Assembly: GCA_046052345.1 (NCBI GenBank) | Contig: JBJOMN010000066.1 | Coordinates: forward strand, 13,091 to 77,090 | Direction: 5' to 3' | Origin: Bacteroidota bacterium | GTDB taxonomy: Bacteria; Bacteroidota; Bacteroidia; AKYH767-A; 2013-40CM-41-45 | DNA: 64,000 nucleotides | Shown: positions 3,617 through 64,000 of the stretch, piece by piece | Layout of the letters: each line of letters starts with the position of its first letter | Position numbering within the stretch: position 1 is the stretch's first letter | Notes under the pieces: generated by a model | Told to the model about the DNA's origin: nothing | Database searches by the model: none | What the model saw: only the letters and a program-made list of their open reading frames with translations | Translations under genes and position numbers: made by a program

Positions 3617-3787
3617 ATATCGCTTTTCCTGCCTTTTCCCTGACCGCCGGAAGGAGAATTAGACCGTTCACAATAAACGGAAGGTAGTCTCGTTAAGGAG
3701 AGCAGCAATCCCACGCAAAAGCCTATGTTTAGCCCTGCTATTCCTACCTTTACAGCCGACCGGCAGACCGCCGCTCCCTACATCCCT

Positions 3788-5344
3788 ATGGACCGGATAT
3801 CCATTCTTTGGGCCGACGACGAAGTCGACCTGTTACGCCCTCACCAGCTTTTCCTACAGGAGAAAGGCTACGAGGTGGTCACCGTGAGCAACGGCGAGGA
3901 CGCTTTGGATCTCGCTGCCAAGCGGCATTTCGATATCGTCTTCCTGGACGAGAACATGCCCGGGCTGTCCGGACTGGAGACGCTTTCCAGGATGAAGAAC
4001 ATACGTCCCGAAACGCCTGTGGTCATGATCACCAAGAGTGAGGAAGAAAAGATCATGGAGGAGGCCATCGGCAGCAAGATCGCCGACTACCTCATCAAGC
4101 CCGTCAACCCCAACCAGATTCTCCTTTCGCTGAAGAAGATCCTGGACAACCGCAGGATCATCAGCCTGAAGACCGCCTCTGCCTACCAGCAGGAGTTCCG
4201 CAATATCGGCATGACCTTGAGCGACCGTTTGAGCTGGCAGGAGTGGACCGATGTATACCGTCGTCTGGTCTTCTGGGAGCTGGAATTGGAAAAGAGCGCC
4301 GACGAGAGCATGTACGAGATCCTCACTTCTCAGAAGAACGAAGCGAACAATCTTTTCGCGCGCTTTGTCGAGAACAACTACCTCAAATGGCTGAAGGCTC
4401 CCGAAAAGGAGGTTCCCGTAATGTCGCATACGCTCATGAAGCGGAAAGTCCTGCCGACAGTCGATGCGTCAAGCGAGCCCGTATTCCTGATCCTCATCGA
4501 TAACCTGAGGTACGACCAATGGCGCATTCTCCAGCCGGTACTCAACCGGTATTTCCGTACGCTGGAGGACGACCTTTACTGCGCCATCCTTCCCACGGCG
4601 ACCCAATATGCCCGTAATGCACTCTTCGCCGGACTGATGCCGGCCGAGATCGAAGCACGATTCCCTAAACTCTGGCTGAACGACGAGGACGAAGGCGGCA
4701 AGAACATGCACGAGGAGGAATTCCTGAACGACCTTCTGAAACGCAACAGGAAGGAATACAAATCCTCCTATACGAAGATCACCAACCTGAATGACGGGAA
4801 GAAGTTGGCGGACGACCTCCACCTGATGATGCAGAACAAGTTAAACGTGATCGTGTACAATTTCGTCGACATGCTTTCCCATGCCCGAACGGAGATGGAG
4901 ATGATCCGTGAACTGGCGGACGACGAAGCGGCATACCGTTCACTCACGTTATCCTGGTTCGAACACTCTCCGCTCTTTGATGCGATCAAACGACTTGCCG
5001 ACAAGAAAGTGAAGATGATCATCACCACCGACCACGGCACCATCCGGGTGAAGGAGCCGGTGAAGATCGTCGGCGACCGCACACTTAACACCAACCTGCG
5101 CTACAAGCAGGGACGGAACATGAACTACGACAGGAAGCAGGTGTTCGAGATCAAGAACCCTGCGGATGCCGGACTTCCGCGGCAGCATCTTTCGCAAGCC
5201 TTCGTCTTCGCCCGGAAAGACGACTTCTTCGCCTATCCGAACAATTACAACCATTACGTCTCCTATTACCGGAACACACTGCAGCACGGTGGCATTTCCC
5301 TGGAAGAGATGATCGTCCCCTTCGCAGTGCTTTCCGCCAAGTGA
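3788..5344 (+). CDS. porX: PorX-like response regulator: CheY receiver fused to PglZ (alkaline-phosphatase superfamily) domain
   Basis: Start moved to the internal ATG (MDRISILWADDEVDLL...), giving 518 aa. The N-terminus is a receiver domain (phospho-acceptor region DIVFLDENMPGLSG). The C-terminus is a PglZ-like domain (ITTDHGTIRV). Length and architecture match the T9SS regulator PorX. Confidence 0.8.
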   Translation: MDRISILWADDEVDLLRPHQLFLQEKGYEVVTVSNGEDALDLAAKRHFDIVFLDENMPGLSGLETLSRMKNIRPETPVVMITKSEEEKIMEEAIGSKIADYLIKPVNPNQILLSLKKILDNRRIISLKTASAYQQEFRNIGMTLSDRLSWQEWTDVYRRLVFWELELEKSADESMYEILTSQKNEANNLFARFVENNYLKWLKAPEKEVPVMSHTLMKRKVLPTVDASSEPVFLILIDNLRYDQWRILQPVLNRYFRTLEDDLYCAILPTATQYARNALFAGLMPAEIEARFPKLWLNDEDEGGKNMHEEEFLNDLLKRNRKEYKSSYTKITNLNDGKKLADDLHLMMQNKLNVIVYNFVDMLSHARTEMEMIRELADDEAAYRSLTLSWFEHSPLFDAIKRLADKKVKMIITTDHGTIRVKEPVKIVGDRTLNTNLRYKQGRNMNYDRKQVFEIKNPADAGLPRQHLSQAFVFARKDDFFAYPNNYNHYVSYYRNTLQHGGISLEEMIVPFAVLSAK

Positions 5345-29091: not shown

Positions 29092-29262
29092 TCAGGCGAT
29101 GACTTTCGCCAGCGGATAACGCTTCTTCCACATTTTAAAGGCTGCCATGCTGTGCACCACCATCGTGGTCTTGTGATCGAGCTGAACCTTTATGCGGGGC
29201 CCTGAAGCTGCCACAGGAGCCGGCTTCACAGGCTTTTTCTTGATGTTTTTTGATCTGATCAT
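29092..29262 (-). CDS. Small basic hypothetical protein (56 aa), absent from ORF track
   Basis: Manual translation gives MIRSKNIKKKPVKPAPVAASGPRIKVQLDHKTTMVVHSMAAFKMWKKRYPLAKVIA*. The stop is followed within 25 nt by the bidirectional terminator. Preceded by a 320-bp AT-rich leader with a TAcTTTTG -7-like element at about 29485-29492 (minus). Confidence 0.4.
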   Translation of the reverse strand: MIRSKNIKKKPVKPAPVAASGPRIKVQLDHKTTMVVHSMAAFKMWKKRYPLAKVIA

Positions 29263-29586
29263 AGTTAAAGTGCGGCATTCACCGCGGTTTAGAATATAAC
29301 AAACAAGTGTCTCTCTAGTTACAAGAGTACATCAGAAACCGTACCACTTCCCATGATGTACATCATTTTCTCAACAAAGAGAACCTGATTAATTCAACTT
29401 CAAATTAACGATTTATTCTGACACTTATTGGTTAAAATAAATTAATTCTTGGAAAAATCCCACAAACGACTGGAAATCAATGCAAAAGTACAAGACGTGC
29501 AAATTGCGGGGTGCGGGCTACGGGGCGCGAAGCGCTGGTAGCAAGGAGCCAAAAACCGATAAAAATCGAAAAAACCACTTTTTAGA

Positions 29587-30588
29587 CTATCGGGCTCCTA
29601 TCCGGACCGCCAGCTCCGCCAGGCGGTTTGAATATCCGATCTCATTATCGTACCAACCCACCACTTTTACCATGGCTCCGAGTACCGTGGTGAGCTGGGC
29701 ATCGAAGATGCAGGAATGAGGATTTCCCACGATATCGGCACTGACAATCGGATCCTCCGTGTATTCCAGAATCCCTTTCATGGCGCCCTCCGCATAAGTT
29801 CGGAAAGCCTTGTTGACGGTTTCCACATCCGGATGCTTTTTCAGGATACACGTGATATCCGTGAGCGATCCGTTCGGAACCGGCACCCTCACCCCTGCTC
29901 CACCCAGCTTACCCTGTAGATGAGGAAGCACGTCTCCTAACGCCTTTGCGGCACCGGTCGTTGTCGGAATGATGGAAAGCGCGGCAGCACGGGCACGGCG
30001 AAGGTCTTTGTGCGGAGCATCGTGGATGTTCTGGTCGCCGGTGTAGGCATGGACCGTTGTCACGAAGGCTGAATCGATCCCCCACAACTCATCCAGGATC
30101 TTCAACATGGGTGCAGCATTGTTGGTCGTGCACGAAGCGTTGGACACCACGTCATCCGATTCGAGCAGGATCCCCTCGTTGACCCCCAGCACCACGGTCT
30201 TCACAGGTTCACCACTCTTTGCCGGAGCTGAAAGAATCACCTTCCTTGCGCCTGCCGAGAGATGCTTCACGGCACCTGCCTTGTCCGTGAACTTACCGGT
30301 ACACTCCAGCACCACATCCACTCCCAACTCCCTCCACGGTAACTGCGAGGGGTCTTTGAAAGACATGCATGGAATCCGGATACCGTTCAACTCCAGATGG
30401 GATTCCGTCGAACTTACGTTTCCGCTGAAGGCACGATGCACCGAATCGTATTTGAACAGATGGGCCAGGGTGGGGTTATCCGTAAGGTCGTTGATGCCTG
30501 CGATTTCGACACCCGGCGTCCGGAGCAATACCCTGGTCGTCATCCTTCCGATGCGACCGAACCCGTTGATGGCTATTCGTACTGGCAT
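29587..30588 (-). CDS. gap: Type I glyceraldehyde-3-phosphate dehydrogenase
   Basis: 333 aa with NGFGRIGR Rossmann motif, ASCTTN active-site Cys and WYDNE. Confidence 0.92.
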   Translation of the reverse strand: MPVRIAINGFGRIGRMTTRVLLRTPGVEIAGINDLTDNPTLAHLFKYDSVHRAFSGNVSSTESHLELNGIRIPCMSFKDPSQLPWRELGVDVVLECTGKFTDKAGAVKHLSAGARKVILSAPAKSGEPVKTVVLGVNEGILLESDDVVSNASCTTNNAAPMLKILDELWGIDSAFVTTVHAYTGDQNIHDAPHKDLRRARAAALSIIPTTTGAAKALGDVLPHLQGKLGGAGVRVPVPNGSLTDITCILKKHPDVETVNKAFRTYAEGAMKGILEYTEDPIVSADIVGNPHSCIFDAQLTTVLGAMVKVVGWYDNEIGYSNRLAELAVRIGAR

Positions 30589-30600
30589 ATTATTTCTAAA

Positions 30601-51518: not shown

Positions 51519-52799
51519 TCATCGGGCAATGACCACGCGTACAGTGCGATTCACTTCTCCGTTGGACAAGTTGAGGAAATAGACTCCTTCCGGTTGCTCG
51601 CTGAGATCCAACCGAAGCACCTGTCCGGAGGGACGAACGAGATACTCCGACTTTACAGTACGTCCGAGGCAGTCTGCCACCGTAAGCCTGAGGTCGCCTA
51701 CGACGGAATGAACGAGAAAGAGATCGAGGTCAAAAATGCCGTTGGAAGGATTGGGATAGACGCTGAAGTTGAAGGTGCGATCCAAATCACTTATTCCGCT
51801 GGAAGGTGACTGGCAGGCAGTCGATGTGAGCAGAGAAGGCTTGTAGGAACTCATGGCGTTCACCATGCGTAACGACTGCTGGTTGGTGAACATGTTCAGA
51901 CAGATATCGTCGCAGTAATCCATGTAATTCATGAACTGCACGCCGTTGCCTGAGACTGCACAATTATCATACAACGGAAAGGTGGGACAACCGTAATTTT
52001 CCGCGCCCTGGTTGGGCGTGTCTCCACAGAAATCAGTACCGGTACAGGTGCCGTTATCGTCCCCCCAGATATGGGAAAGCCGGAAGCAATGACAGATCTC
52101 GTGGACGGAGGTACGGCCCAGGTTGTAGGAAGGCTGCAGCATACCACCTACACGCCCAAAGGCGTTATACTGTATGACAAGTCCGTAGGTGGAAGAAACG
52201 GTAGCGGTCGGAAATTCACCATATCCCAGCACTGCTCCCCCGAGGTTGCACACCCAGATGTTCAAATAGCGTGACGGGTCCCAGGGGTCCAATCCGCCAT
52301 TCGCATAGCGTTTTACGTTGTCATTCGTACTGAAAGAGGATACTGTCGTATTGCGCCGCTCGATACCGTTGGTCGGGTTGCCGTTAGTATCGGTTTGGGC
52401 GAGACAGAAGCGAAAGGGGGTTGCAGCGGCTACAGAGCGGAATACCGAAGGCGTATTCCCCGTATCAGCATTCAGCCGGGCGAAGTCCTCGTTCAGGACA
52501 TCGATCTGCGACTGTATCTGCTGGTCGGAAATATTCTGACCGGTAGTACGCCAGACAACATGCACCACGACGGGTATGGTGTATATGAGGTTGGTTTGAC
52601 GGGAGGCAGCGCTCCGTACCGCCATCGTTTCCAGTTCTCGGTTTTCCTGCTCGAAGCGCTGACGAAGCTCGGGATCCGCGGACATGCGGGCGTTCCAATA
52701 CTCGGTGGTGGCACAACGCTTCACCCCGGTCTCTGCGAAGGTCGGCTTGATGAATGCTGCTGCGGAAAATAGGATGGATAATGCGGCTTTCCGTATCAT
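51519..52799 (-). CDS. Secreted zincin-type metalloprotease with T9SS type-A C-terminal sorting domain
   Basis: 426 aa with a signal peptide. HEICHCFRLSH (HExxH...H with Arg where metzincins have Gly) and a Cys-rich region. C-terminal ~85 aa VYPNPSNGIFDL...GVYFLNLSNGEVNRTVRVVI matches the T9SS sorting-domain pattern. Confidence 0.75.
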   Translation of the reverse strand: MIRKAALSILFSAAAFIKPTFAETGVKRCATTEYWNARMSADPELRQRFEQENRELETMAVRSAASRQTNLIYTIPVVVHVVWRTTGQNISDQQIQSQIDVLNEDFARLNADTGNTPSVFRSVAAATPFRFCLAQTDTNGNPTNGIERRNTTVSSFSTNDNVKRYANGGLDPWDPSRYLNIWVCNLGGAVLGYGEFPTATVSSTYGLVIQYNAFGRVGGMLQPSYNLGRTSVHEICHCFRLSHIWGDDNGTCTGTDFCGDTPNQGAENYGCPTFPLYDNCAVSGNGVQFMNYMDYCDDICLNMFTNQQSLRMVNAMSSYKPSLLTSTACQSPSSGISDLDRTFNFSVYPNPSNGIFDLDLFLVHSVVGDLRLTVADCLGRTVKSEYLVRPSGQVLRLDLSEQPEGVYFLNLSNGEVNRTVRVVIAR

Positions 52800-52896
52800 G
52801 CTCTAATTCGATTTCAGCAGTAAAAATACCAAAATAAGCGGCATTTCAAGCTTTATTTCGTCAAAGCGACTGATTCAGTAGGCGTTGACGGCTTTG

Positions 52897-53535: not shown

Positions 53536-53539
53536 TGAC

Positions 53540-53547
53540 TATTTTTG
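53540..53547 (+). promoter_or_regulatory. -7 element TAttTTTG upstream of TonB-dependent receptor locus; about 150-nt leader
   Basis: tatttttg matches TAnnTTTG. No -33 TTTG at canonical spacing. ATG at 53701. Confidence 0.35.
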
Positions 53548-53700
53548 CATCAGATTCAACCCGCCCCCGTAAACAGGCGATCATTCAACCGGGAACCGAA
53601 CTTTACGTGTCATGCACATGCTGACGTAGAATCGCATGATATACCCTGCAGAACATCCGGCGACATCCCCATTCACCAGTCCATTCGAACCATTCTTCCT

Positions 53701-55965
53701 ATGAAACGATTGTGGGCGATTACGGTCGTAATCGCCATATCCTTCTCGGCGCGCGGACAGTTGCGCGGAACCGTGACAGACAAGAGCACCGGGCAGCCCG
53801 TTCCGGGAGCCACGCTGCTGCTTCCTGAGCTCAAACAGGCGACAATCACGGATGCCACGGGTGGCTATGTTTTCCCTGATCTTAAAAAAGGGAAAATCAT
53901 GCTCCAGGTGCGCATGCTGGGATACGGCGGATTGAACACTACCGTGGATCTGAATACACGCACCGTAGCGGATTTCCAGCTGGAGACCAGCATCCTGGAG
54001 CACAGCGAAGTGGTGATTACCGGATCCGCCTTCACGGTGGACGTCCGTAGGACGCCTCTGGCGGTAGTTCCTTTGGAGGGTTTGCAGATCACACGGACCG
54101 GTTCCGACAACCTGATACAATCCCTTACGGCCGTTCCAGGAATTTCCACCATCAGTACGGGTAACGGTATTGCAAAACCGGTGATACGAGGTCTAAGCTA
54201 CAACCGGGTCGTCATTGTCAACCAGGGAGTGAGGCAGGAAGGTCAGCAATGGGGCAGCGAGCACGGGCCGGAAATAGACCAGTTCGCCGCCGAACATGTG
54301 GAGATCCTCAAGGGTCCTGCATCCTTGGAATACGGCTCGGACGCTATCGGCGGCGTCATCCATCTGCTTGAGCCTGTCCCTCCTCCTCAAGGTGCAGTGC
54401 GTGGCCGACTGAACAGTCAGTTCTCCACGAACAATCTGCTCACCGGCAACTCACTGCTTCTGGAGGGGAATCACTCCGGCTTCGTCTGGAGGACGCGTGG
54501 AAGTTATAAATCAGCAGGTCCTTTCAGGACGCCGAAGGAAACGGTATACAACTCCGGTTTTTCCGAGAATGCGCTGGATATGATGGCAGGTGTGAACCGC
54601 AGGTGGGGTTATTCGCACCTGAATTTCAGCCGCTGGAGCTCTCTTCTTGGCCTCACGGAGGGAGACAGGGATTCGCTGACCGGGGCGTTCGTAGACGGTG
54701 ACGGCCGTGTCTTAACGGAAAAAGAATTGAACGGAAGAAAGCCCGTTACGCCTTTTCAGCGTGTGGAACACCTAAGGATCGCGAGCACCAACAATGTGAT
54801 ACTGGGAAACAAACAACTGCGCATGAATGCCGGATTACAGCAAAACGGCCGGAGGGAATTCGAAGATTCTCCGGACTCCCCGGGAATAAACATGCGACTC
54901 AGAACCGCCACTTTCGATTCAAGGCTGCTCATGACATCGGGCAGCTCCTTTGAAGCCGCCGCCGGATGCTCAGGCATGTTGCAGTCGAATGAGAACCTGG
55001 GACTGGAGTATCTGATACCTGATTATCGAAGTATGGATGCCGGCATCTTTCTTACGGCCAAATCGAGCCCGGGCCGCTCCACTTTCAGCGGAGGATTAAG
55101 ATTCGACACCAGAAGTATGCGATCTGAAAGTCTGATGATCGAGCAGGACACCGTATTCAACCGCTTGGAGAAAGAGTTCATGGCGTTCACCGGTTCAGCG
55201 GGCTGGTCGTTTTCCTTCAACGACCGCAACTCGGTGAAAGCGAATTTCGGCAAAGGCTTCCGTGCGCCAACGGTTTCCGAGCTCTCCGCGAACGGTTTGC
55301 ACGAGGGCACTTTCCGTTACGAGGTAGGGAATCCGGCGTTGCAGCCGGAAGTTTCCTATGAGTTCGATGCCGGAGTCATCCATGACCGTGAGCTTTTTTC
55401 GGTCCATGCCGACCTTTTCGTCGGATACATCAGGGACTTCATCTACTACGCCCGGTCGCTGAACGAAACAAGAGCCGTGGACGGAGGCATTTATCCTGTC
55501 TATCGATACCTGCAGGACAATGTCGTCCGACAAGGTGGCGAACTGACATTGGACCTGCACCCCTGGCCTGCCCTGCATTTCGAAAACTCTGCGGCGTTCG
55601 TCTATGCCGAAAACAGGAATACAGGCCGGCCGCTCGCATTCACGCCACCGGCCCGCACAACCCATGAGCTGCGCTATGATTTCAAAAGCCGTAGCAAAAA
55701 AGGCAGCATTTATTTCAACTTCTCCCTGGATAACGTCTTCGCTCAGAACCGTATCGACGAATTCGAGACCTCTACGGCAGGGTATCTTCTGCTGAATGCA
55801 GGGGCAGGATTCGAAGGGAGGATCGGAAAAACCGGCCTCCGGCTTTTCGCAAATCTCAGGAATATCACGAATGAGACCTATTTCGACCACCTCAGCCGAT
55901 ACAAGGACATTTCGGTGAACGGGCCCGGGAGGAATCTGACGACCGGAGTAGAAATTGATTTTTAA
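53701..55965 (+). CDS. TonB-dependent receptor with N-terminal carboxypeptidase-regulatory-like domain (no SusD partner)
   Basis: Start at MKRLWAITVVIAISFSARGQ, giving 754 aa. CarboxypepD_reg-like N-terminus (LRGTVTD...GATLLL...TDATGGYVF), plug domain and 22-strand barrel. Ends in a terminal aromatic (…VEIDF). Confidence 0.9.
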   Translation: MKRLWAITVVIAISFSARGQLRGTVTDKSTGQPVPGATLLLPELKQATITDATGGYVFPDLKKGKIMLQVRMLGYGGLNTTVDLNTRTVADFQLETSILEHSEVVITGSAFTVDVRRTPLAVVPLEGLQITRTGSDNLIQSLTAVPGISTISTGNGIAKPVIRGLSYNRVVIVNQGVRQEGQQWGSEHGPEIDQFAAEHVEILKGPASLEYGSDAIGGVIHLLEPVPPPQGAVRGRLNSQFSTNNLLTGNSLLLEGNHSGFVWRTRGSYKSAGPFRTPKETVYNSGFSENALDMMAGVNRRWGYSHLNFSRWSSLLGLTEGDRDSLTGAFVDGDGRVLTEKELNGRKPVTPFQRVEHLRIASTNNVILGNKQLRMNAGLQQNGRREFEDSPDSPGINMRLRTATFDSRLLMTSGSSFEAAAGCSGMLQSNENLGLEYLIPDYRSMDAGIFLTAKSSPGRSTFSGGLRFDTRSMRSESLMIEQDTVFNRLEKEFMAFTGSAGWSFSFNDRNSVKANFGKGFRAPTVSELSANGLHEGTFRYEVGNPALQPEVSYEFDAGVIHDRELFSVHADLFVGYIRDFIYYARSLNETRAVDGGIYPVYRYLQDNVVRQGGELTLDLHPWPALHFENSAAFVYAENRNTGRPLAFTPPARTTHELRYDFKSRSKKGSIYFNFSLDNVFAQNRIDEFETSTAGYLLLNAGAGFEGRIGKTGLRLFANLRNITNETYFDHLSRYKDISVNGPGRNLTTGVEIDF

Positions 55966-56004
55966 AAGCGGGAAACAATCTTCCCGTGCTACTCGTTAGA
56001 ACCT

Positions 56005-56433
56005 GTGAGAAAAAAAACATCCATGAAGTCCTCCTATCTCTTCCTTTGTTCCGCCGTCCTTGGAGTCGCATTTTCCTGCTCGTCCTGCAAGGACGAAGAT
56101 ACTTGTACCGCAGGAACCGGTGGCAATCTCACCCTTGTAGCACAGCTGGCCCACCATGGCGATGTCATCCCCAACGACTCCCTTTATCCCGATACCGTCT
56201 GGGTGAAGTTCAATGTCTCCGACTGGGCAAATGCCCCCCAAGGGTACGACCTGCAGGTAATCGGTGAGTTTCCGGAGGACCATATCCACATCGAAGGACT
56301 TAAATGCGGAAAATATTACCTCTACGGATCGGGCTGGGACGCGTCCGTCAGTCAGGTCGTAAAAGGCGGAAAGCCATTTGAAACAGACCAAACGGATGGG
56401 GAAATATCGACCACCATACCCGTCACGGAATAA
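56005..56433 (+). CDS. Small lipoprotein, prealbumin/CarboxypepD_reg-like single domain (paralog A)
   Basis: 142 aa with a lipobox (AFSCSSC). C-terminal motif LKCGKYYLYGSGWD. Confidence 0.6.
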   Translation: MRKKTSMKSSYLFLCSAVLGVAFSCSSCKDEDTCTAGTGGNLTLVAQLAHHGDVIPNDSLYPDTVWVKFNVSDWANAPQGYDLQVIGEFPEDHIHIEGLKCGKYYLYGSGWDASVSQVVKGGKPFETDQTDGEISTTIPVTE

Positions 56434-56450
56434 ATCCGTAAAAAGATCAA

Positions 56451-56478
56451 AAAAGCCCGCCAAAGGGCTTTTTTTTTA
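56451..56478 (+). terminator. Rho-independent terminator (possibly partial/attenuating inside the locus)
   Basis: aaaa agcccgccaaagggct ttttttttt. Confidence 0.65.
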
Positions 56479-56503
56479 TGAATAAATTTCGTATCTTCAG
56501 GGA

Positions 56504-56893
56504 ATGTCAGGCAGTTTGCTCAGGCTTTTCCTTCCTTTGGCAGTTATCCTCACTGCCCTGTCGACTTCATGCACGAAAGACCACGAAGGCCGAGTCGTTC
56601 CGGGAACTATCAATCTGGAAATATCAGCGATTCATCATTCCTGGGGCGTGCCTTACGTACCGGTGCATCTGAAAATGAACACCCGCGAATTCCCCGGAGA
56701 GGATTCAGCATCCTACGATTTCCATGGCCTTTGCGATAATGAGGGAAAAGTGCGCTTCGAACAACTCTATCCCGGTGATTACTTCGTTTACATCAAAGGG
56801 TACGACCTGATCTGGGGGGATACCGTAACCGGCAAGGTGGCACTTCAATTACAACAACCCTCTGTGAACGTCACCGTTCGCGTAAACGAGTGA
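56504..56893 (+). CDS. Small lipoprotein, prealbumin/CarboxypepD_reg-like single domain (paralog B)
   Basis: 129 aa with a lipobox (LSTSC). Motif LYPGDYFVYIKGYD parallels paralog A. Confidence 0.6.
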   Translation: MSGSLLRLFLPLAVILTALSTSCTKDHEGRVVPGTINLEISAIHHSWGVPYVPVHLKMNTREFPGEDSASYDFHGLCDNEGKVRFEQLYPGDYFVYIKGYDLIWGDTVTGKVALQLQQPSVNVTVRVNE

Positions 56894-56896
56894 CCT

Positions 56897-58348
56897 ATGA
56901 GACGTATTCCGCGAATCCTTTTTTTTACTGCAGCCTGGATCCTTCTGCTTCAAGGCTGTAAGCCGGATCCGGTGGAACCGGACACCTGCGGGTTTCCGTC
57001 GGACGTGGCCGACATCATCCTTACTCGTTGCGCCACTCCGGGATGCCACAATGATATCAGCTACGGGAACGCAGGCGGAATCAATCTGAGCTCATGGAGT
57101 TCCGCCTTCGATTTCGGAAGAGCCGGCAGCAGCATCATCCCCTACTCGACCGACTACAGCTATCTGCTTTACTTCGTAAATACGGACAGCACCAGAGGTC
57201 CTGCCCTCCAACCCACTATGCCGTTGGACCAAGCGGCTTTATCCGCTTCCGAATACGAGGCGTTGAAAAACTGGATCCGAAGAGGTGCTCCCGACAAGGA
57301 CGGAAGACTTCGCTATCCTGCCGACCCTTCCCGCAAGAAGATTTACACGTGCATGCAGAGCTGCGACCAGGTTGCTGTCATCGATGCGGCATCCAACAAC
57401 ATCATGCGGTACATCCCGGTGGGGTCCAGTCCCATGGCGACTGAGGCCCCCCACCAGGTAAAGGTCTCTCCCGACGGGCAGTACTGGTATGTCGTGTTCT
57501 ACTCCGGCAGCGTTGTCCAGAAGTTCAGGACATCTGACGACAGCATCGTCAGCCAGACCTATATCGGTCCCGGCCAGTGGAACACACTCATCATCAGCCC
57601 TGACGGAAGAAAGGGGTTCGTGAACGGAACCGATATCGGCACTACTGTCGAGATCAATCTGGAGACCATGGCGCCCGGTCTGCAGCATTCGTTCAACCCC
57701 TCGCCGCATGGCGGCTTCATCACTCCCGACGGACGATGGCTTTATCTTACCCAGCAGACGGGCAGTTTCGTCACCAAAGTGGATCTCACCACGTACGATA
57801 CGGATCAGATCTTATTGGGAGGAACACCCGGACAGGACAGTCATGAAATGACCTTATCGCCTGATGGCACCCGCTACTTTGTCAGTTGTCAGGCTACAGG
57901 ACAGGTGCTGGCTTACCAGCTTTCCAACGACAGCCTGCTGGCAGTGATCAATGTCGGGGCAAAGCCGCAGGAATTCGCCGTATCCAGCCACCGGCCATAC
58001 GTGTATGTCACCTGTACCGAGGAACCCGTTGACGCTTCACGAAAAGGCCTGGTGTATGTCATCGATGCAGTGAATCTCACTGTTACCGGTACGGTTTACA
58101 CCGGCTTCCAGCCGCACGGAATCGCTTACGACAGCGACCGTCAGCTGGTGTATGTCGCGCATCTCAATCTGGACCAAAGCGGACCTGCACCTCATCACTT
58201 CTCCATGTGCGGTGGAAGGAACGGTTACATCACCTGCATCGACGAGCGTACCGGCGGACTACTTCAAAAAAGCCTTCCGAACGGTGCTGTATTCAATTAC
58301 CGTCAGGAAGTGCTGCCGGCGCCCTATTACATCAGTTACAAGCGGTAA
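56897..58348 (+). CDS. Lipoprotein fusing a PSCyt1-like (Planctomycete cytochrome-c-type) N-terminal domain to a YVTN-type beta-propeller
   Basis: 483 aa with a lipobox (LLQGC). N-terminal ~110 aa (DVADIILTRCATPGCHNDISYGNAGGINLSSW...PALQPTMPLDQAALSASEYEALKNWIRRGAP) follows the PSCyt1 pattern but with CX4CH. The remainder has repeated beta-propeller blades (PDGQYWYVVF, SPDGRKGFV, TPDGRWLYLT, SPDGTRYFVS, RPYVYVTC, RQLVYVAH). The start overlaps the previous stop by about 3 nt. Confidence 0.7.
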   Translation: MRRIPRILFFTAAWILLLQGCKPDPVEPDTCGFPSDVADIILTRCATPGCHNDISYGNAGGINLSSWSSAFDFGRAGSSIIPYSTDYSYLLYFVNTDSTRGPALQPTMPLDQAALSASEYEALKNWIRRGAPDKDGRLRYPADPSRKKIYTCMQSCDQVAVIDAASNNIMRYIPVGSSPMATEAPHQVKVSPDGQYWYVVFYSGSVVQKFRTSDDSIVSQTYIGPGQWNTLIISPDGRKGFVNGTDIGTTVEINLETMAPGLQHSFNPSPHGGFITPDGRWLYLTQQTGSFVTKVDLTTYDTDQILLGGTPGQDSHEMTLSPDGTRYFVSCQATGQVLAYQLSNDSLLAVINVGAKPQEFAVSSHRPYVYVTCTEEPVDASRKGLVYVIDAVNLTVTGTVYTGFQPHGIAYDSDRQLVYVAHLNLDQSGPAPHHFSMCGGRNGYITCIDERTGGLLQKSLPNGAVFNYRQEVLPAPYYISYKR

Positions 58349-58397: not shown

Positions 58398-59336
58398 TCA
58401 GGCCGTCTGCTTCATATTGTCGAGAACGTCCATGACCTCCTTGACTGCCTTTGCGGAATCGTGCACCAGTTTTAGCTCATCCTGATTCAGCTTCAGTTCG
58501 ATGATCTCTTCGATCCCGTTCTTACCCAGCTTCACGGGAACGCCGAGGTAAATGCCTTTCAAGCCGTATTCTCCGTTGAGCAATGCACAGCAGGGGAAGA
58601 TGCGTTTTTGGTCCTTGACAATGGCTTCCACCATCTGTGCGGCGGCAGCACCCGGAGCATACCAGGCCGAGGTCCCCATCAGGTTCACCAATTCGCCGCC
58701 GCCCTTCTTGGTGCGTTCGACGATGGCATCAAGCTTGTCCTTGTCGATGAGTTCAGTCACGGGAATTCCGGCAACTGTGGTATACCGTGGAAGCGGCACC
58801 ATGGTATCGCCGTGACCTCCCATGAGAACCGCCTGGATGTCCTTGGGTGATGTATTCAGTGCTTCGGCGAGGAAGGCACGATAGCGGGCGGTATCGAGGA
58901 TACCCGCCATTCCGAAGACGCGCTTGCTGTCGATCTTGGCCGTGAGGTAGGCGCAGTAGGTCATCACGTCAAGCGGATTGGAGACGACCACGATGATGGC
59001 ATTCGGAGAATGCTTGATGATATTTTCAGTGACAGAACGGACGATTCCCGCATTGGTAGCGATGAGGTCGTCGCGGCTCATGCCTGGTTTACGCGGCAAG
59101 CCCGAGGTGATGACGACCACGTCCGAACCGGCAGTTTTGGAATAGTCGTTGGTGCTGCCCGTGATGCGTGTATCATACAAATTGATGGGGCTCGTCTGCC
59201 ACATGTCCAGGGACTTCCCTTCTGCAATACCTTCTTTGATGTCGAGCAGAACGACTTCATGAACGAAATCCTTGTGGGCGATTACATCGGCACAAGTGGC
59301 ACCTACGTTACCGGCACCTACGACAGTTACTTTCAT
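58398..59336 (-). CDS. mdh: Malate dehydrogenase (LDH-like type)
   Basis: 312 aa with GAGNVG Rossmann motif and catalytic GGHGDTMVP. Confidence 0.92.
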   Translation of the reverse strand: MKVTVVGAGNVGATCADVIAHKDFVHEVVLLDIKEGIAEGKSLDMWQTSPINLYDTRITGSTNDYSKTAGSDVVVITSGLPRKPGMSRDDLIATNAGIVRSVTENIIKHSPNAIIVVVSNPLDVMTYCAYLTAKIDSKRVFGMAGILDTARYRAFLAEALNTSPKDIQAVLMGGHGDTMVPLPRYTTVAGIPVTELIDKDKLDAIVERTKKGGGELVNLMGTSAWYAPGAAAAQMVEAIVKDQKRIFPCCALLNGEYGLKGIYLGVPVKLGKNGIEEIIELKLNQDELKLVHDSAKAVKEVMDVLDNMKQTA

Positions 59337-59643
59337 GGGGATGTGTGTGTTGAAATTGAGCCTGCGAAATTAGAAAGAAATTGAGGATGGAACCACCGAT
59401 AATTCACACATGTTTATTAGTTTTTGGCTTATAAATCGATGTTTTTTAAAGGTTTTTATCAAAATATGTTGTATTTTTCAAATAAGTTCTATTATTATAG
59501 TAATATTCAAAGCCTCCTGTAAGCTCTGCCTGAAAAAACTCAGCTTAAATTCCCTAAATTTCATACTATTAACAGAGTATCCCGTTCGCTCTGAGTTTCA
59601 TTGTTTCACTGATTTGAAAAACAGCCGATTACTCACTAAATCC
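59337..59643 (+). promoter_or_regulatory. 300-bp AT-rich island upstream of the small secreted protein / SprB-like gene pair
   Basis: Sharp drop in GC compared with the flanking high-GC DNA, with runs of tttt/aaaa. The ORF-track N-terminal extension of the next gene reads through this low-complexity region. Confidence 0.4.
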
Positions 59644-60051
59644 ATGAAACCCTTACCCAATAAGCCTTTGCGGCCACTTCACCGTTGCAAGAACCTGGTG
59701 ATGCTTGCCGTGCTGGTGCTCTCTTCGCTCAGCATGTTCCTTGCCCCCTCCGATATCCTTGCGCAATCGGGATCTTCAGGGCAATCCACCCTTCCTGCCA
59801 GAAACCGGCATTATTTCCTGGTGCGTCTGGAAACCGGCAATATCCGCGACAATGAAGACCTTATCAAATCCGCTTTTCTGAACAACGGTTTTACTCTTTG
59901 CGAAACCGACGCGAACAATCAGTCGATCCGACTGATCGGCGAAAAAGGCGCTTCTATCGAGCGGGTCCAAAGCATTCTCAAGGAACTCGGACTAACCTTG
60001 AAAAGCCATCAGGAAGCCTATACCAACCAGACTCCGGTTTTCTTTCGTTAA
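59644..60051 (+). CDS. Small secreted hypothetical protein (135 aa) immediately upstream of SprB-like gene
   Basis: Start at MKPLPNKPLRPLHRCKNLVMLAVLVLSSLSMFLAPSDILAQS (signal peptide). No recognisable motif. 72-nt gap to the next gene. Confidence 0.5.
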   Translation: MKPLPNKPLRPLHRCKNLVMLAVLVLSSLSMFLAPSDILAQSGSSGQSTLPARNRHYFLVRLETGNIRDNEDLIKSAFLNNGFTLCETDANNQSIRLIGEKGASIERVQSILKELGLTLKSHQEAYTNQTPVFFR

Positions 60052-60123
60052 CCAACCTTTCCCCCCTGCATGAGACCGACTTTACTCGTTTCTTCGTTCA
60101 ATCTACCAACCGCTCGCACAGGA

Positions 60124-63100
60124 ATGCCATGGTGGTTGCCGGCTTTGCTGCTGCTATTTTCCGTCGCGGCCGTTGCACAACCATCGAATGATAATCCGTG
60201 CAACGCAATCGCACTTACTGTGGGAGCGACCTGCAGCTACACTTCGTTCAACAACACGAACGCCACCAACACGACAGGAGTTCCTGCTCCGGGCTGCGGA
60301 AACTACCAGACCGGCGATGTATGGTTTACCGTGACGGTACCTGCCGGCGGAGCCATCAACTTCGACACCCAGATCGGCACCATGGTAGACGGAGCCATGG
60401 CCGTATACACCGGAACCTGTAACTCCCTCACCTTGCTGACGTGCGACGACAATTCCAGTCCCAATGGCAGCATGCCGGCGATCGGACTTACAGGGCAGAC
60501 GCCCGGCACAGTCCTTTACATCCGTATGTGGGGAAGAGCATCCGGGCAAAGTGCTTCTTTCGGTGCTTTCGGCATCTGTGTCTCCACCCCGCCTGCAAAT
60601 GACAACCCCTGCAACGCCACGCCGCTTACGATTTCGGCAACCGGTTGCACTTACATCCAGGGTAGCAACCTGAACTCCACCAGCACCACCGGGGTTCCGG
60701 CGCCGGGCTGCGGTCTTTACAACGGCCAGGACGTATGGTTCTCCGCCACGGTGCCTTCGACGGGCTCCATCGTCTTCCAGACCCAGTCGGGAACCATGAC
60801 GGACGGGGCCATGGCGGTTTACAGCGGCGGCTGCAACGCTCTGAGTCTTGTATCGTGCAACGACGATGCCGCCACCGGAGGAACGATGCCCGGACTTACA
60901 GCCTCCAATCTTACGCCGGGCTCCACCGTCTACATCCGTTTTTGGAGCTACAATAACGCATCTAACGGGACCTTCCAGTTGTGCGGCCGACAGAACACCC
61001 CGCTCGCCCCGACCAATCAGGACTGTGCCAATGCGATTCCGATCTGTCAGAACGTCTATTCCAATCCGATCTCGTATGTCGGCACCGGAAACGTCCTTAA
61101 CGAAATCACCCCGGGGATCAGCTGTCTGGGAAGCGGTGAACGAAATGATGTCTGGTACACCTTCACCGTGCAGCAGAGCGGCAACCTGAATTTCACCATC
61201 ACGCCGGTGAACATGTCGGATGACTATGACTGGGCGGTTTACAACCTCACCAATGCCAGCTGCGCCAACATCGCTACGAACGGTGCGTTGCAGGTAAGCT
61301 GCAACTACTCCGCTACACCGGGTAATACAGGACCGACTGGAGCAGGTACGACGAACAGTCAACCTGCCTCGGGCGTCCCCTTCAACCAAACAATTCCGGT
61401 TACCGCGGGCCAGACCTACGTGGTCAACGTGAGCAACTACTCGGCGACAGCCGACGGTTATACCATCAACTTCGGTGCATCCTCAGCCGTCATCTTCGAT
61501 AACATACCTCCGCAGATGACCGGATTGACATCCGCCACAACGTGCGGCTCCTCGCAGCTGACGTTTAACTTCTCGGAGAATATCCTTTGCAGCACCATCC
61601 AGAACGGCGACTTTACGCTTACAGGACCCGGAGGTCCGTATACCATCACGGGATGGTCTGCTGCCGGTTGCGCAAACGGAGGCACCTACGGGCGTTCGGT
61701 CACTGTGACCATCTCGCCTGCCATCCGCACGAGCGGATCCTTCTCCTTCTGCCTGGGGAACGCCGCCGGGTCGGTCACCGACCTTTGCGGAAACGTGGCG
61801 CCGCCCGCCTGTTTCACCTTCACCATCGCTCCTATCACCCTTACCACTTCCACGGTGAATCCTGCCTGTAACGGAGGCGCCACCGGAAGCGTGACGGTAA
61901 GTCCCACCACGGGAGTGAGTCCTTACACCTACGTCTGGTCGCCGAACATCGGAAACACCTCTACCGTCAACAACGTAGCCGCAGGAACCTATTCCGTCAC
62001 AGTCACCGACGCGAACGGATGCACTGCCACGCAGAGCGTGACCGTTACCAATCCTCCTCCGATGACTACGACGGCCAGTGTGACATCACCGCCGTGCGCT
62101 AACCAGACCGGCACTGCCACCGCTTCGCCTAACGGAGGAACATCGCCTTACACCTACAGTTGGAGCCCTTCGGGCGGTACGGGCGCCTCTGCCACAGGAC
62201 TTGCTGCCGGAAGTTACACCGTAACGGTCACTGACAGCCGCGGTTGCACGGCAACTGCAGCGGTCACCGTCACCGCTCCTGCGCCTTTCACAGCCAGTGT
62301 CACCGCCACTACCAACCCACGCTGCAGCGGTGCGACCAACGGCTCTGCCACCGTCAGCGCAAGCGCCGGTGCTCCGACACCTGTCACGTACGCATGGGCT
62401 CCTTCGGGAGGAACGGGTGCCACCGCCAACAACCTCGGTGCGGGAACGTACACCGTAACCGTGACGAACGGCAACGGCTGTACGGCAACCACTACAGTGA
62501 CTCTCACCGCTCCGCCGGCCATCACCCCGTCTATCACCGCATTCCCTGCCACTTGTAACGGTACAGCAACGGGATCCCTGACAGTAGCCGCCACCGGCGG
62601 AACCACGCCTTACACTTTCGCCTGGTCGCCAAGCGGCGGCACCTCTTCTACCGCCAATAATCTTGCCGCGGGTAATTATACGGTCACGATCACGGATGCG
62701 AACGGTTGCACGGCCAGGGTAGGCGGCGTTGTGAGCCAGCCGCCTGCTGTAAACGGAACCACCAGTTCGGTGCCCGTCACCTGCAACGGTCTCTCCAACG
62801 GATCCGCCAGCGTGGTCGCTTCCGGAGGCACAGCACCTTTCACCTACAACTGGCTACCCAGCGGCGGAACCGGATCGACCGCCAACAATCTTTCCGGAGG
62901 GACTTACACTGTCACCATCACAGACGCCAGAGGTTGCACGGCTACTCGGACCGTGACAGTAGCGCAGCCTTCTCCGATCACCTACACCTCCACCAGCACC
63001 ACTGCCACCTGCGGACTCAGCGATGGCAGCGCTCAGATCAACGTGCTAGGCGGAACAGGACCTTATCAGTATGACTGGTCTCCGAGCGGAGGCAGCGCCT

Positions 63101-64000
63101 CCACCGCATCCGGATTATCGGGAGGGGCGTATACGGTGTTGGTCACAGACGCGGCGGGTTGCACCGTACAGGCGGCGGTCAGTGTATCCAATACGACACC
63201 TGCTACAGCCACCATCACCGCTTCCACCAACGTAAGTTGCGCGGGCGGCAGCAACGGTTCCGCCACTGTCAGTGTTTCAGGAAGCACCGGAGCAGCCCAA
63301 TATGTCTGGTCTCCCTCCGGAGGCACAGGGGCTACAGCAACCGGACTCGATGCAGGAACCTACTCGGTCACTGTAACTGACGGAAGCGGTTGCAACACGG
63401 TGGCTACAGTCACCATTACCGCTCCGCCTCCTCTTACGGCAGCCATTTCAACCGTAACACCGGCTGCCTGTGCCGGAGCAGCAAACGGGTCAGCGACTGC
63501 GCTTGCCGGGGGTGGAACTCCGGGATATACCTACAGTTGGTCAGGTGGTGCAGGAAGTTCAGCTGCCGCATCGAACCTTGCCGCAGGATCCTATACGGTA
63601 ACTGTCACTGACAACCAAGGTTGCACCATGACAGCCACTGCGACAATAACAGCACCGCCGCCGATCACTGCCGCAGTCTCTGCCACGAACGCCACCTGCA
63701 ACGGTTCGGCAAACGGTTCTGCGACGGTCACCCCGTCCGGCGGATCACCCGCCTACACCTACAGCTGGACACCTTCTGGCGGCAGCGGAGCTACAGCAAC
63801 CGGCCTTTCCCCCGGATCCTATTCCGTCACCATCACTGATGCCCACGGATGCACCTTTTCCGCTGCTACCACTATCACGCAGCCTCCGCCTTTGGCAGCA
63901 TCCATCACGCCATCCAATATCCTTTGCTCAGGAGTCAGCAGCGGATCCGTAACCGTTTCCATTGGCGGCGGCACTTCGCCCCTGACCTATGTCTGGTCGC
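60124..64000 (+). CDS. Giant cell-surface SprB-repeat protein (3' end truncated by window): signal peptide, three PPC-like N-terminal domains, at least 10 SprB-type repeats
   Basis: Frame from ATG 60124 (MPWWLPALLLLFSVAAVAQPSNDNPCNA...) is open to the window end, so it is absent from the ORF track. Two approximately 130-aa domains share NDNPCNA..L...GVPAPGCG.Y...DVWF...DGAMAVY.G.CN.L.L..C.DD...PG..VYIR.W. A third is a divergent PPC-like domain. From about 61860 there are at least 10 tandem ~78-aa units C.G..NGSA.V...GGT.PYTY.WSPSGG....A..L..G.Y.VTVTD..GCT (SprB repeat). Confidence 0.85.
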   Translation, partial: MPWWLPALLLLFSVAAVAQPSNDNPCNAIALTVGATCSYTSFNNTNATNTTGVPAPGCGNYQTGDVWFTVTVPAGGAINFDTQIGTMVDGAMAVYTGTCNSLTLLTCDDNSSPNGSMPAIGLTGQTPGTVLYIRMWGRASGQSASFGAFGICVSTPPANDNPCNATPLTISATGCTYIQGSNLNSTSTTGVPAPGCGLYNGQDVWFSATVPSTGSIVFQTQSGTMTDGAMAVYSGGCNALSLVSCNDDAATGGTMPGLTASNLTPGSTVYIRFWSYNNASNGTFQLCGRQNTPLAPTNQDCANAIPICQNVYSNPISYVGTGNVLNEITPGISCLGSGERNDVWYTFTVQQSGNLNFTITPVNMSDDYDWAVYNLTNASCANIATNGALQVSCNYSATPGNTGPTGAGTTNSQPASGVPFNQTIPVTAGQTYVVNVSNYSATADGYTINFGASSAVIFDNIPPQMTGLTSATTCGSSQLTFNFSENILCSTIQNGDFTLTGPGGPYTITGWSAAGCANGGTYGRSVTVTISPAIRTSGSFSFCLGNAAGSVTDLCGNVAPPACFTFTIAPITLTTSTVNPACNGGATGSVTVSPTTGVSPYTYVWSPNIGNTSTVNNVAAGTYSVTVTDANGCTATQSVTVTNPPPMTTTASVTSPPCANQTGTATASPNGGTSPYTYSWSPSGGTGASATGLAAGSYTVTVTDSRGCTATAAVTVTAPAPFTASVTATTNPRCSGATNGSATVSASAGAPTPVTYAWAPSGGTGATANNLGAGTYTVTVTNGNGCTATTTVTLTAPPAITPSITAFPATCNGTATGSLTVAATGGTTPYTFAWSPSGGTSSTANNLAAGNYTVTITDANGCTARVGGVVSQPPAVNGTTSSVPVTCNGLSNGSASVVASGGTAPFTYNWLPSGGTGSTANNLSGGTYTVTITDARGCTATRTVTVAQPSPITYTSTSTTATCGLSDGSAQINVLGGTGPYQYDWSPSGGSASTASGLSGGAYTVLVTDAAGCTVQAAVSVSNTTPATATITASTNVSCAGGSNGSATVSVSGSTGAAQYVWSPSGGTGATATGLDAGTYSVTVTDGSGCNTVATVTITAPPPLTAAISTVTPAACAGAANGSATALAGGGTPGYTYSWSGGAGSSAAASNLAAGSYTVTVTDNQGCTMTATATITAPPPITAAVSATNATCNGSANGSATVTPSGGSPAYTYSWTPSGGSGATATGLSPGSYSVTITDAHGCTFSAATTITQPPPLAASITPSNILCSGVSSGSVTVSIGGGTSPLTYVWS
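61860..64000 (+). repeat. Tandem coding repeats (about 231-237 bp period) encoding SprB-type repeats
   Basis: Recurrent DNA and protein units. They generate many spurious overlapping ORFs on both strands in the track (62214-63839). Confidence 0.8.

Follow-up and report, generated by a model that had tools for sequence, protein, structure and literature searches.

A giant SprB-repeat adhesin gene and its small upstream neighbour beside mdh in a Bacteroidota chromosome

The window analysed here is the whole 64,000-nt stretch of Bacteroidota DNA (contig JBJOMN010000066.1, positions 13,091 to 77,090), with a mean GC content of 0.545; it carries rpoB, rpoC, tuf, gapA, and lpxD, and therefore belongs to the core chromosome. 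Near its right end an AT-rich segment separates mdh, coding for malate dehydrogenase, from a small gene for a secreted protein, which is followed by the 5' part of a giant gene coding for a SprB-repeat protein. The locus raises the question of whether the segment marks foreign DNA inserted beside mdh or the promoter of a native transcription unit, and of what the small protein has to do with its giant neighbour. With a probability of about 0.8, this part of the window holds the 5' end of an operon of two genes, native and vertically inherited, for a giant SprB-repeat surface adhesin exported by the Sec and type IX secretion systems (Sec/T9SS). This reading is founded on gene structure, domain families, synteny, base composition, and the C-termini of orthologues, all of which were established directly.

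Organization of the locus

The right end of the window comprises four elements.

58398-59336, minus strand: mdh, open reading frame (ORF) for a malate dehydrogenase of 312 aa, with the Ldh_1_N and Ldh_1_C Pfam domains, annotated by NCBI as 'malate dehydrogenase' (MFM2208355.1); the divergent neighbour bounding the spacer
59337-59643, no strand: AT-rich intergenic spacer between the divergent genes (GC 0.326), from which mdh and the small-gene/adhesin operon are presumably transcribed
59644-60051, plus strand: gene for the small secreted protein, 135 aa (stop included), identical in the NCBI annotation (MFM2208356.1)
60070-64000, plus strand: giant adhesin gene, 5' part, 1310 codons within the window, open at the window end

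The AT-rich segment is the exact gap between the start codon of the minus-strand mdh and the plus-strand small ORF. A protein of 135 aa with a signal peptide had been called there in the first-pass annotation, and the frame running from ATG 59644 to the stop at 60051, with a signal peptide read from the sequence, agrees with it. A longer, 213-aa reading of the same ORF from ATG 59410 was rejected, as the extension lies within the AT-rich spacer and is not kept in homologues. The stop codon of the small gene and the ATG of the giant one are 18 nt apart (60052-60069), and no terminator-like site was found between the two genes on the plus strand. The giant frame, expected to exceed 1290 aa and to run past the window end, does both, with 1310 codons counted from ATG 60070. 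This ATG is conserved in the orthologous locus of a sister lineage (L005), while the alternative start picked by gene callers, M19, is not.

Domain structure of the giant adhesin

The adhesin consists, within the window, of a predicted signal peptide, four globular domains, and the beginning of a long repeat array.

60070-60177, plus strand: aa 1-36 of the adhesin, a predicted signal peptide read by eye, with cleavage at AVA↓Q (MRPTLLVSSFNLPTARTGMPWWLPALLLLFSVAAVA↓QPS)
60181-60585, plus strand: D1, a GBD_T9SS_assoc beta-sandwich with 6 Cys (PF23759, 27.7 bits, cut-off 27; predicted local distance difference test, pLDDT, above 90 in the AlphaFold2 model, AF2)
60589-60987, plus strand: D2, a duplicate of D1 with 54% identity (PF23759, 25.9 bits when scanned alone, just below the cut-off)
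61009-61488, plus strand: D3, a divergent homologue of D1 and D2 (31% over 78 aa to D1, E=8e-5; PF23759, 22.0 bits, below the cut-off)
61489-61839, plus strand: D4, an Ig-like domain (weak Big_5 match, E=0.0021, below the cut-off; all-beta in AF2)
61840-64000, plus strand: SprB-type repeat array (PF13573) of 74-78-aa units with exactly 2 Cys each, about 9.5 units in the window, continuing past its end

The N-terminal Sec signal peptide is present as judged by eye. Behind it three PPC-like domains had been proposed, and three related beta-sandwich domains do occur there, so that the fold class was right; the family was wrong. The whole giant frame matches PF23759 (GBD_T9SS_assoc) with 34.1 bits against a cut-off of 27, in 2 stretches, while PPC (PF04151) gives a sub-threshold second match on D1 (21.6 bits against 25.9) and no match on D2 or D3; some homologues carry precomputed PF04151 matches. 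Nor are D1 and D2 near-identical, as had been stated, their identity being 54%. The AF2 model of the first 579 residues, computed from a 67-sequence alignment, is all-beta with a mean pLDDT of 90, and the structures retrieved with it by Foldseek are arrays of CUB, F5/8C, and ColG collagen-binding-type sandwiches; a PDB sequence search with the N-terminal region returned no relatives. The number of N-terminal GBD_T9SS_assoc domains varies between loci, with one in L013 and L084 and two in the window, L005, and L086.

The SprB family (PF13573) matches the remainder of the frame in 10 stretches (E=2.9e-71, 235 bits against a cut-off of 28), in keeping with the earlier count of at least 10 tandem SprB repeats. 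The units share on average 50% identity in amino acids and 59% in DNA, with a DNA maximum of 67.5%, and Tandem Repeats Finder detected no DNA-level tandem array in the repeat region. Since the units are diverged and no such array exists at the DNA level, the array is old, and its recent amplification or homogenisation was rejected on the same figures. A match to TIGR04183, a type A sorting domain, lies inside the array (aa 1059-1107, E=4.5e-9, 0 stretches passing alone); it was treated as cross-matching of Ig-like units, not as a C-terminal domain (CTD), and could mislead automated CTD calls.

Extension beyond the window, orthologues, and the C-terminus

Four metagenome contigs, found via the mdh protein, match the last 9 kb of the window at 99.9-100% identity (L001, 100%; L002, 99.9%). 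L002 carries the giant frame on to 2298 aa from M19, i.e., to at least 2316 aa with about 23 units, and leaves it still open. In the sister lineage, the adhesin of L005 comprises at least 2411 aa, its contig ending within the gene, and its repeats are 90% identical to those of the window adhesin in a gapless alignment over 1723 aa. The C-terminus of the window's own adhesin was not reached, the frame being open in the window, L001, L002, and L005, where it attains at least 2316-2430 aa in the contigs. The small protein, looked up exactly from either possible start and also as P0121, retrieved no contig; genome contigs lacked a 32-mer taken from the far end of L002, metagenome contigs lacked a 29-mer common to L002 and L005, and a related-locus search of metagenome contigs with the single small protein returned no loci. 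Entries in the homologue database appear to go no further than about 1012 aa, and no full-length giant was among the homologues returned.

Positional orthologues were obtained from a scan of species-representative genomes and from look-ups of small-protein homologues, the best match among the GTDB species-representative genomes having 65% identity. The gene order is conserved and comprises an M43 peptidase that carries a type A CTD, an RluA-like protein, two proteins of about 130-140 aa, a beta-propeller of about 490 aa, mdh (on the opposite strand), the small gene, and the giant gene. The complete orthologous giants have 2535 aa (L084), 3143 aa (L085), and 4122 aa (L086-L088), and all of them end in PKD-PKD-CHU_C, the last being a type B sorting domain. 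CHU_C was found with 46.9 bits in L013, and TIGR04131 scores 58 and 56.8 bits in orthologues against a cut-off of 35. Because all the complete positional orthologues end in PKD-PKD-CHU_C/TIGR04131, a type B T9SS CTD is expected, by orthology, on the window's adhesin.

Variation in repeat number between close relatives, which the first-pass annotation had proposed to look for, was found in L084 (10410-18017) and L085 (10410-19841). Their small proteins are identical and their adhesin DNA is 92-94% identical, and the two adhesins differ by one clean 1824-nt block, equal to 8 units. Assembly collapse is an unlikely cause of this indel, since the units are at most about 68% identical in DNA. In four long-read contigs of metagenome-assembled genomes (L082, L083, L008, and L013) apparent frameshifts break the giant gene into several ORFs, while the short-read orthologues are intact; these frameshifts are probably sequencing errors, not signs of pseudogenes.

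The small secreted protein and its link to the adhesin

Two parts of the small protein are recognizable.

59644-59763, plus strand: aa 1-40 of the small protein, predicted to be a Sec/SPI signal peptide cleaved at ILA↓Q (assigned by eye; low-confidence helix at aa 16-31 in AF2; A..A↓Q-type sites in homologues)
59806-60024, plus strand: ferredoxin-like beta-alpha-beta-beta-alpha-beta domain, aa 55-127 (AF2 pLDDT 82-94; Foldseek)

The N-terminus shows a basic n-region followed by a hydrophobic core of 18 residues and the ILA↓Q cleavage-type site. No family in Pfam (E<=0.01) or NCBIfam matches the protein, and a PDB sequence search found no relatives of its family. A word-indexed search returned 3 relatives and a profile 15, while an exhaustive hidden Markov model (HMM) search of 1.84 billion representatives delimited a family of 27 clusters, all of them stand-alone proteins of 80-155 aa. 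The family keeps the signal peptide, typically with an A↓Q-type site, followed by a variable, often Ser/Thr-rich linker, and a core in which V60, K101, G102, E106, L112, E124, Y126, P131, and F134 are near-invariant down to about 25% identity.

The beta-alpha-beta-beta-alpha-beta domain is modelled by AF2 with a pLDDT above 90. Its best Foldseek analogues are HMA domains, matched only at E>=3e-3 with a TM-score normalised to the target of up to 0.83, and the modelled fold is a generic ferredoxin-like one, implying no function. Membership in the HMA family was rejected, as the protein lacks CxxC (its beta1-alpha1 loop, ETGNIRDNE, has no Cys) and has no Pfam HMA match. A subset of the family, including P0123, P0132, P0136, P0137, P0143, P0150, P0152, and P0153, has C-x-K-G-C where the window protein has G-E-K-G-A, which may be a lineage-specific disulfide or metal site.

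Every family member whose context could be read (the window, L005, L007, L008, L013, L014, and L081-L090) has its gene flanked by mdh on one side and a giant SprB-repeat gene on the other, sharing the strand of the latter, and even the most distant matches, P0153 and P0156 (E=5e-10 and E=2e-7), occupy this mdh/giant position. The gap between the small and the giant gene is usually 18-22 nt. The small protein can tentatively be taken for a dedicated accessory of the adhesin, although shared ancestry of the whole block explains the linkage equally well. The more specific proposal, that it represents a new clade-restricted family of periplasmic accessories (chaperones, adaptors for targeting, or anchors) dedicated to an 'orphan' giant adhesin with a type B CTD, is doubtful.

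It is a real, if minority, possibility that the small ORF has no functional connection with the adhesin and merely shares its promoter, being either a small periplasmic protein or a non-functional leader ORF. The latter variant is excluded by the open frame, the signal peptide, and the near-invariant core kept to about 25% identity, along with a pLDDT above 90. An unrelated periplasmic protein would agree with the generic fold, with the absence of the gene from two loci in which the giant gene still follows mdh (L012 and L015), and with an evolution faster than that of its neighbour, as between the window lineage and L005 the small protein is 78% identical and the adhesin N-terminus 95%; moreover, the whole block is syntenic, which makes linkage alone weak evidence. 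Nevertheless, the family was found nowhere else among the 1.84 billion representatives, and the strand and, usually, the 18-22-nt gap to the giant gene are kept wherever the small gene is present.

Relation to SprB

The giant protein might be a true SprB orthologue, i.e., a mobile gliding adhesin running on the GldJ/GldK track, and its SprB repeats, the type B CTD of its orthologues, and the presence of a T9SS would suit this role. Such an identity is, however, improbable. The arrangement in Flavobacterium johnsoniae is sprC-sprD-sprB-sprF, according to Rhodes et al. 2011 as cited in PMC12635249. The locus departs from the classical sprC-sprD-sprB arrangement, as had been recognized before: neither sprC nor sprD lies upstream, their place being taken by the 135-aa protein without a family match and then by the divergent mdh, and no sprF-like gene follows the orthologues. 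The gene next to the adhesin in L084 codes for a Por_Secre_tail protein on the opposite strand, while in L083 and L085 small or unrelated genes are found there. F. johnsoniae alone has 12 type B substrates, mostly not SprB (PMC12618676). Finally, both ends of the giants match a widespread family of type B CTD proteins of about 790 aa (48% for the head and 40% for the PKD-CTD tail), and with head and tail both matching, the giants look like expanded members of this family and not like SprB itself.

The AT-rich spacer

Two blocks of the spacer are conserved in the sister lineage.

59547-59578, plus strand: conserved block of 32 nt, AAATTCCCTAAATTTCATACTATTAACAGAGT, identical in the orthologous spacer of L005 (alignment); a candidate promoter element
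59605-59624, plus strand: TTCACTGATTTGAAAAACAG, another conserved block, within the small gene's 5' leader, perfectly kept relative to L005 (alignment)

The contrast between an AT-rich segment of about 300 bp and the surrounding DNA of higher GC, noted at the outset, is real: the GC content of 59337-59643 is 0.326 against 0.545 in the window, and its 150-bp minimum of 0.247 is the lowest within the window. A second AT-rich gap (29225-29527, 150-bp minimum 0.293) lies upstream of a gapA-like gene (29590-30600, minus strand). As it is similarly AT-rich, the spacer beside mdh is extreme but not unique, and this genome of 54.5% GC has AT-rich promoter spacers in more than one place. In six lineages the equivalent spacers have a GC content of 0.28-0.34, at a locus GC of 0.36-0.59. 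The GC content at third codon positions (GC3) is 0.59 in the small gene, 0.60-0.70 in the giant gene, and 0.67 in mdh. The locus was found to contain no tRNA and no flanking direct repeats, and no mobility gene is among its ORFs; no Rfam family matched the spacer or the leader.

The first-pass annotation had suggested a silencing region or the scar of an acquisition, and had itself named the same AT-rich composition in relatives as evidence to the contrary, which is what was found, together with a GC3 of the small and giant genes that matches that of mdh and marks them as native. That the segment was inserted beside mdh together with the two downstream genes, as an island acquired horizontally or a target of xenogeneic silencing, is very improbable, although its GC is the lowest of the window and it lies directly 5' of a lineage-restricted, ORFan-like gene: the mdh (leftward), small, and giant (both rightward) order is kept across lineages even where the small proteins have diverged to 25-35% identity, spacer GC stays at 0.28-0.34 regardless of genome GC, both genes have native GC and GC3, the hallmarks of insertion sought (tRNA, flanking direct repeat, mobility gene) are lacking, and the promoter gap of the housekeeping gene gapA is comparably AT-rich. 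Because spacer GC is constant, gene order conserved, and GC3 native, the segment is neither an island nor an acquisition scar; it is an ordinary divergent mdh/adhesin spacer, presumably bearing the promoters.

A sigma-70 consensus scan of the spacer gave matches not above those in shuffles. The sequence TAAATTTC inside the 59547-59578 block has 5/6 specified positions of the Bacteroidota -7 motif TAnnTTTG, and in L013 and L014 a motif scan located exact copies of TAnnTTTG, which lie 105-123 nt upstream of the small gene there, a distance similar to that in the window.

T9SS genes and other neighbours

Two T9SS-related genes are located elsewhere in the window.

3677-5341: PorX (NF052313 equivalog, 836 bits against a cut-off of 300)
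51522-52802: M43 peptidase with a type A CTD, Por_Secre_tail (PF18962, Pfam)

Both PorX and a protease with a T9SS CTD had been reported from the window, and both identifications stand. With PF13573 matched in 10 stretches alongside them, the description of the frame as a SprB-repeat protein in a T9SS-bearing genome is likewise upheld.

The block adjoining mdh (53539-58348) comprises a TonB-dependent receptor gene (53539-55962), two small ORFs (56005-56433 and 56504-56893) whose products are signal-peptide or lipoprotein-like and match no family, and a gene for a 483-aa YVTN/lactonase-type beta-propeller (56897-58348). It recurs in syntenic relatives except for the receptor, which was seen only in the near-identical L001 and L002. 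The block may be an uptake or processing module.

Proposed expression, export, and display

From the features above we infer how the adhesin is secreted and displayed at the surface, that it binds a ligand, and what role the small protein may have, as follows. Transcription would start in the AT-rich spacer, divergently from mdh, and cover the small and the giant gene. The product of the first gene would be exported by Sec and, after cleavage, consist of a short low-complexity linker and a ferredoxin-like domain of about 75 residues. The product of the second would comprise, in order, the signal peptide, two GBD_T9SS_assoc (galactose-binding-domain-like) domains, D3, one Ig-like domain, and at least 23 diverged 76-aa SprB units, and, by orthology, is expected to have two PKD domains and then a type B T9SS sorting domain at its C-terminus. 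Exported by Sec, it would fold in the periplasm, with a single disulfide in every unit and three apiece in D1 and D2. Substrates with a type B CTD depend on PorP/SprF-like shuttles, although orphans exist (PMC12618676), and SprF is known to anchor SprB (PMC9143113). The type B CTD of the adhesin would be recognised, and the protein would cross the T9SS translocon and reach a shuttle of the PorP/SprF type encoded at another site; it would then be displayed as a long stalk of SprB units whose distal, N-terminal lectin-like domains may bind a ligand. In the least certain step, the small protein would act as a dedicated, co-translated periplasmic accessory, a chaperone or an adaptor.

Several observations weigh against the reading of the region as a two-gene operon for an adhesin exported by Sec/T9SS. 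No exact -7 motif TAnnTTTG was found in the spacer of the window, and both signal peptides were predicted by eye. The CTD of the window adhesin is deduced from orthologues whose N-termini are about 65% identical to its own, and no porP/sprF-like gene was seen next to the orthologues or in the window. No homologue of the small gene is detectable in two otherwise syntenic loci, L012 (1520-1929) and L015 (1623-2224), where the giant gene follows mdh, so that the small gene is not universally required; the partner was either lost or moved there. As the whole block including mdh is syntenic in the clade, the adjacency of the small gene may reflect shared ancestry and not function. Furthermore, the window does not distinguish a mobile (gliding) adhesin from a static one.

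Significance

Giant SprB-repeat adhesins with a type B CTD are a well-known class of Bacteroidota surface proteins, and the main feature of the locus adds no new biology to it; some novelty lies only in the small partner family, which is uncharacterised. This tiny, adhesin-linked family is a testable candidate for a cargo-specific T9SS helper and, if the proposal is true, such a helper would be of an undescribed kind, acting alongside an adjacent PorP/SprF shuttle or replacing it. The locus family is documented here in uncultured freshwater and wastewater Bacteroidota, with adhesins of about 2500 to over 4100 aa whose length changes by whole-unit indels though the repeats are old and diverged, and evidence is provided that the giants are expanded versions of a common type B CTD protein of about 790 aa. 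It is also worth keeping in mind that a mere promoter spacer can account for a sharp AT-rich dip in a Bacteroidota genome of 55% GC.

Comparison with known systems

The small protein shares with HMA domains such as those of Atx1 and CopZ the ferredoxin-like beta-alpha-beta-beta-alpha-beta fold. The resemblance is one of fold only, as the small protein has no CxxC metal site and is predicted to be secreted, not cytoplasmic.

The orphan type B substrates of F. johnsoniae, Fjoh_1123 and Fjoh_1720 as well as Fjoh_4934, all of them predicted adhesins, are not encoded beside a porP/sprF-like gene, their shuttle being encoded elsewhere (PMC12618676). A type B CTD gene without an adjacent porP/sprF-like gene is likewise what is found here, as seen for the orthologues L083-L085 only. 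Unlike the locus described here, with its small upstream partner, none has been described for the Fjoh orphans.

The 669-kDa gliding adhesin SprB of F. johnsoniae and the window protein have in common the Sec signal peptide, a long PF13573 array, a T9SS-bearing Bacteroidota host, and a repeat number that varies between relatives, as well as a type B sorting domain, which in the case of the window gene is seen for orthologues only. They differ in gene context, with no sprC/sprD upstream and, in the orthologues, no sprF-like shuttle gene downstream, and with a different small partner gene. They also differ in architecture, since the proteins of the present family have a head of two or three GBD_T9SS_assoc domains and PKD-PKD before the CTD. 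SprB has a length of 6497 aa, while the orthologues found here are smaller, with 2535-4122 aa.

Further counterparts in architecture are the proteins of about 790 aa annotated as 'gliding motility-associated C-terminal domain' proteins (e.g., P0049, P0048, and P0066). Their D3-D4 head is 60-68% identical to the window protein and their PKD-PKD-CHU_C tail about 40% identical to that of L084, with a few SprB units between the two, whereas the window protein adds one or two N-terminal GBD_T9SS_assoc domains and roughly 20-45 extra SprB units.

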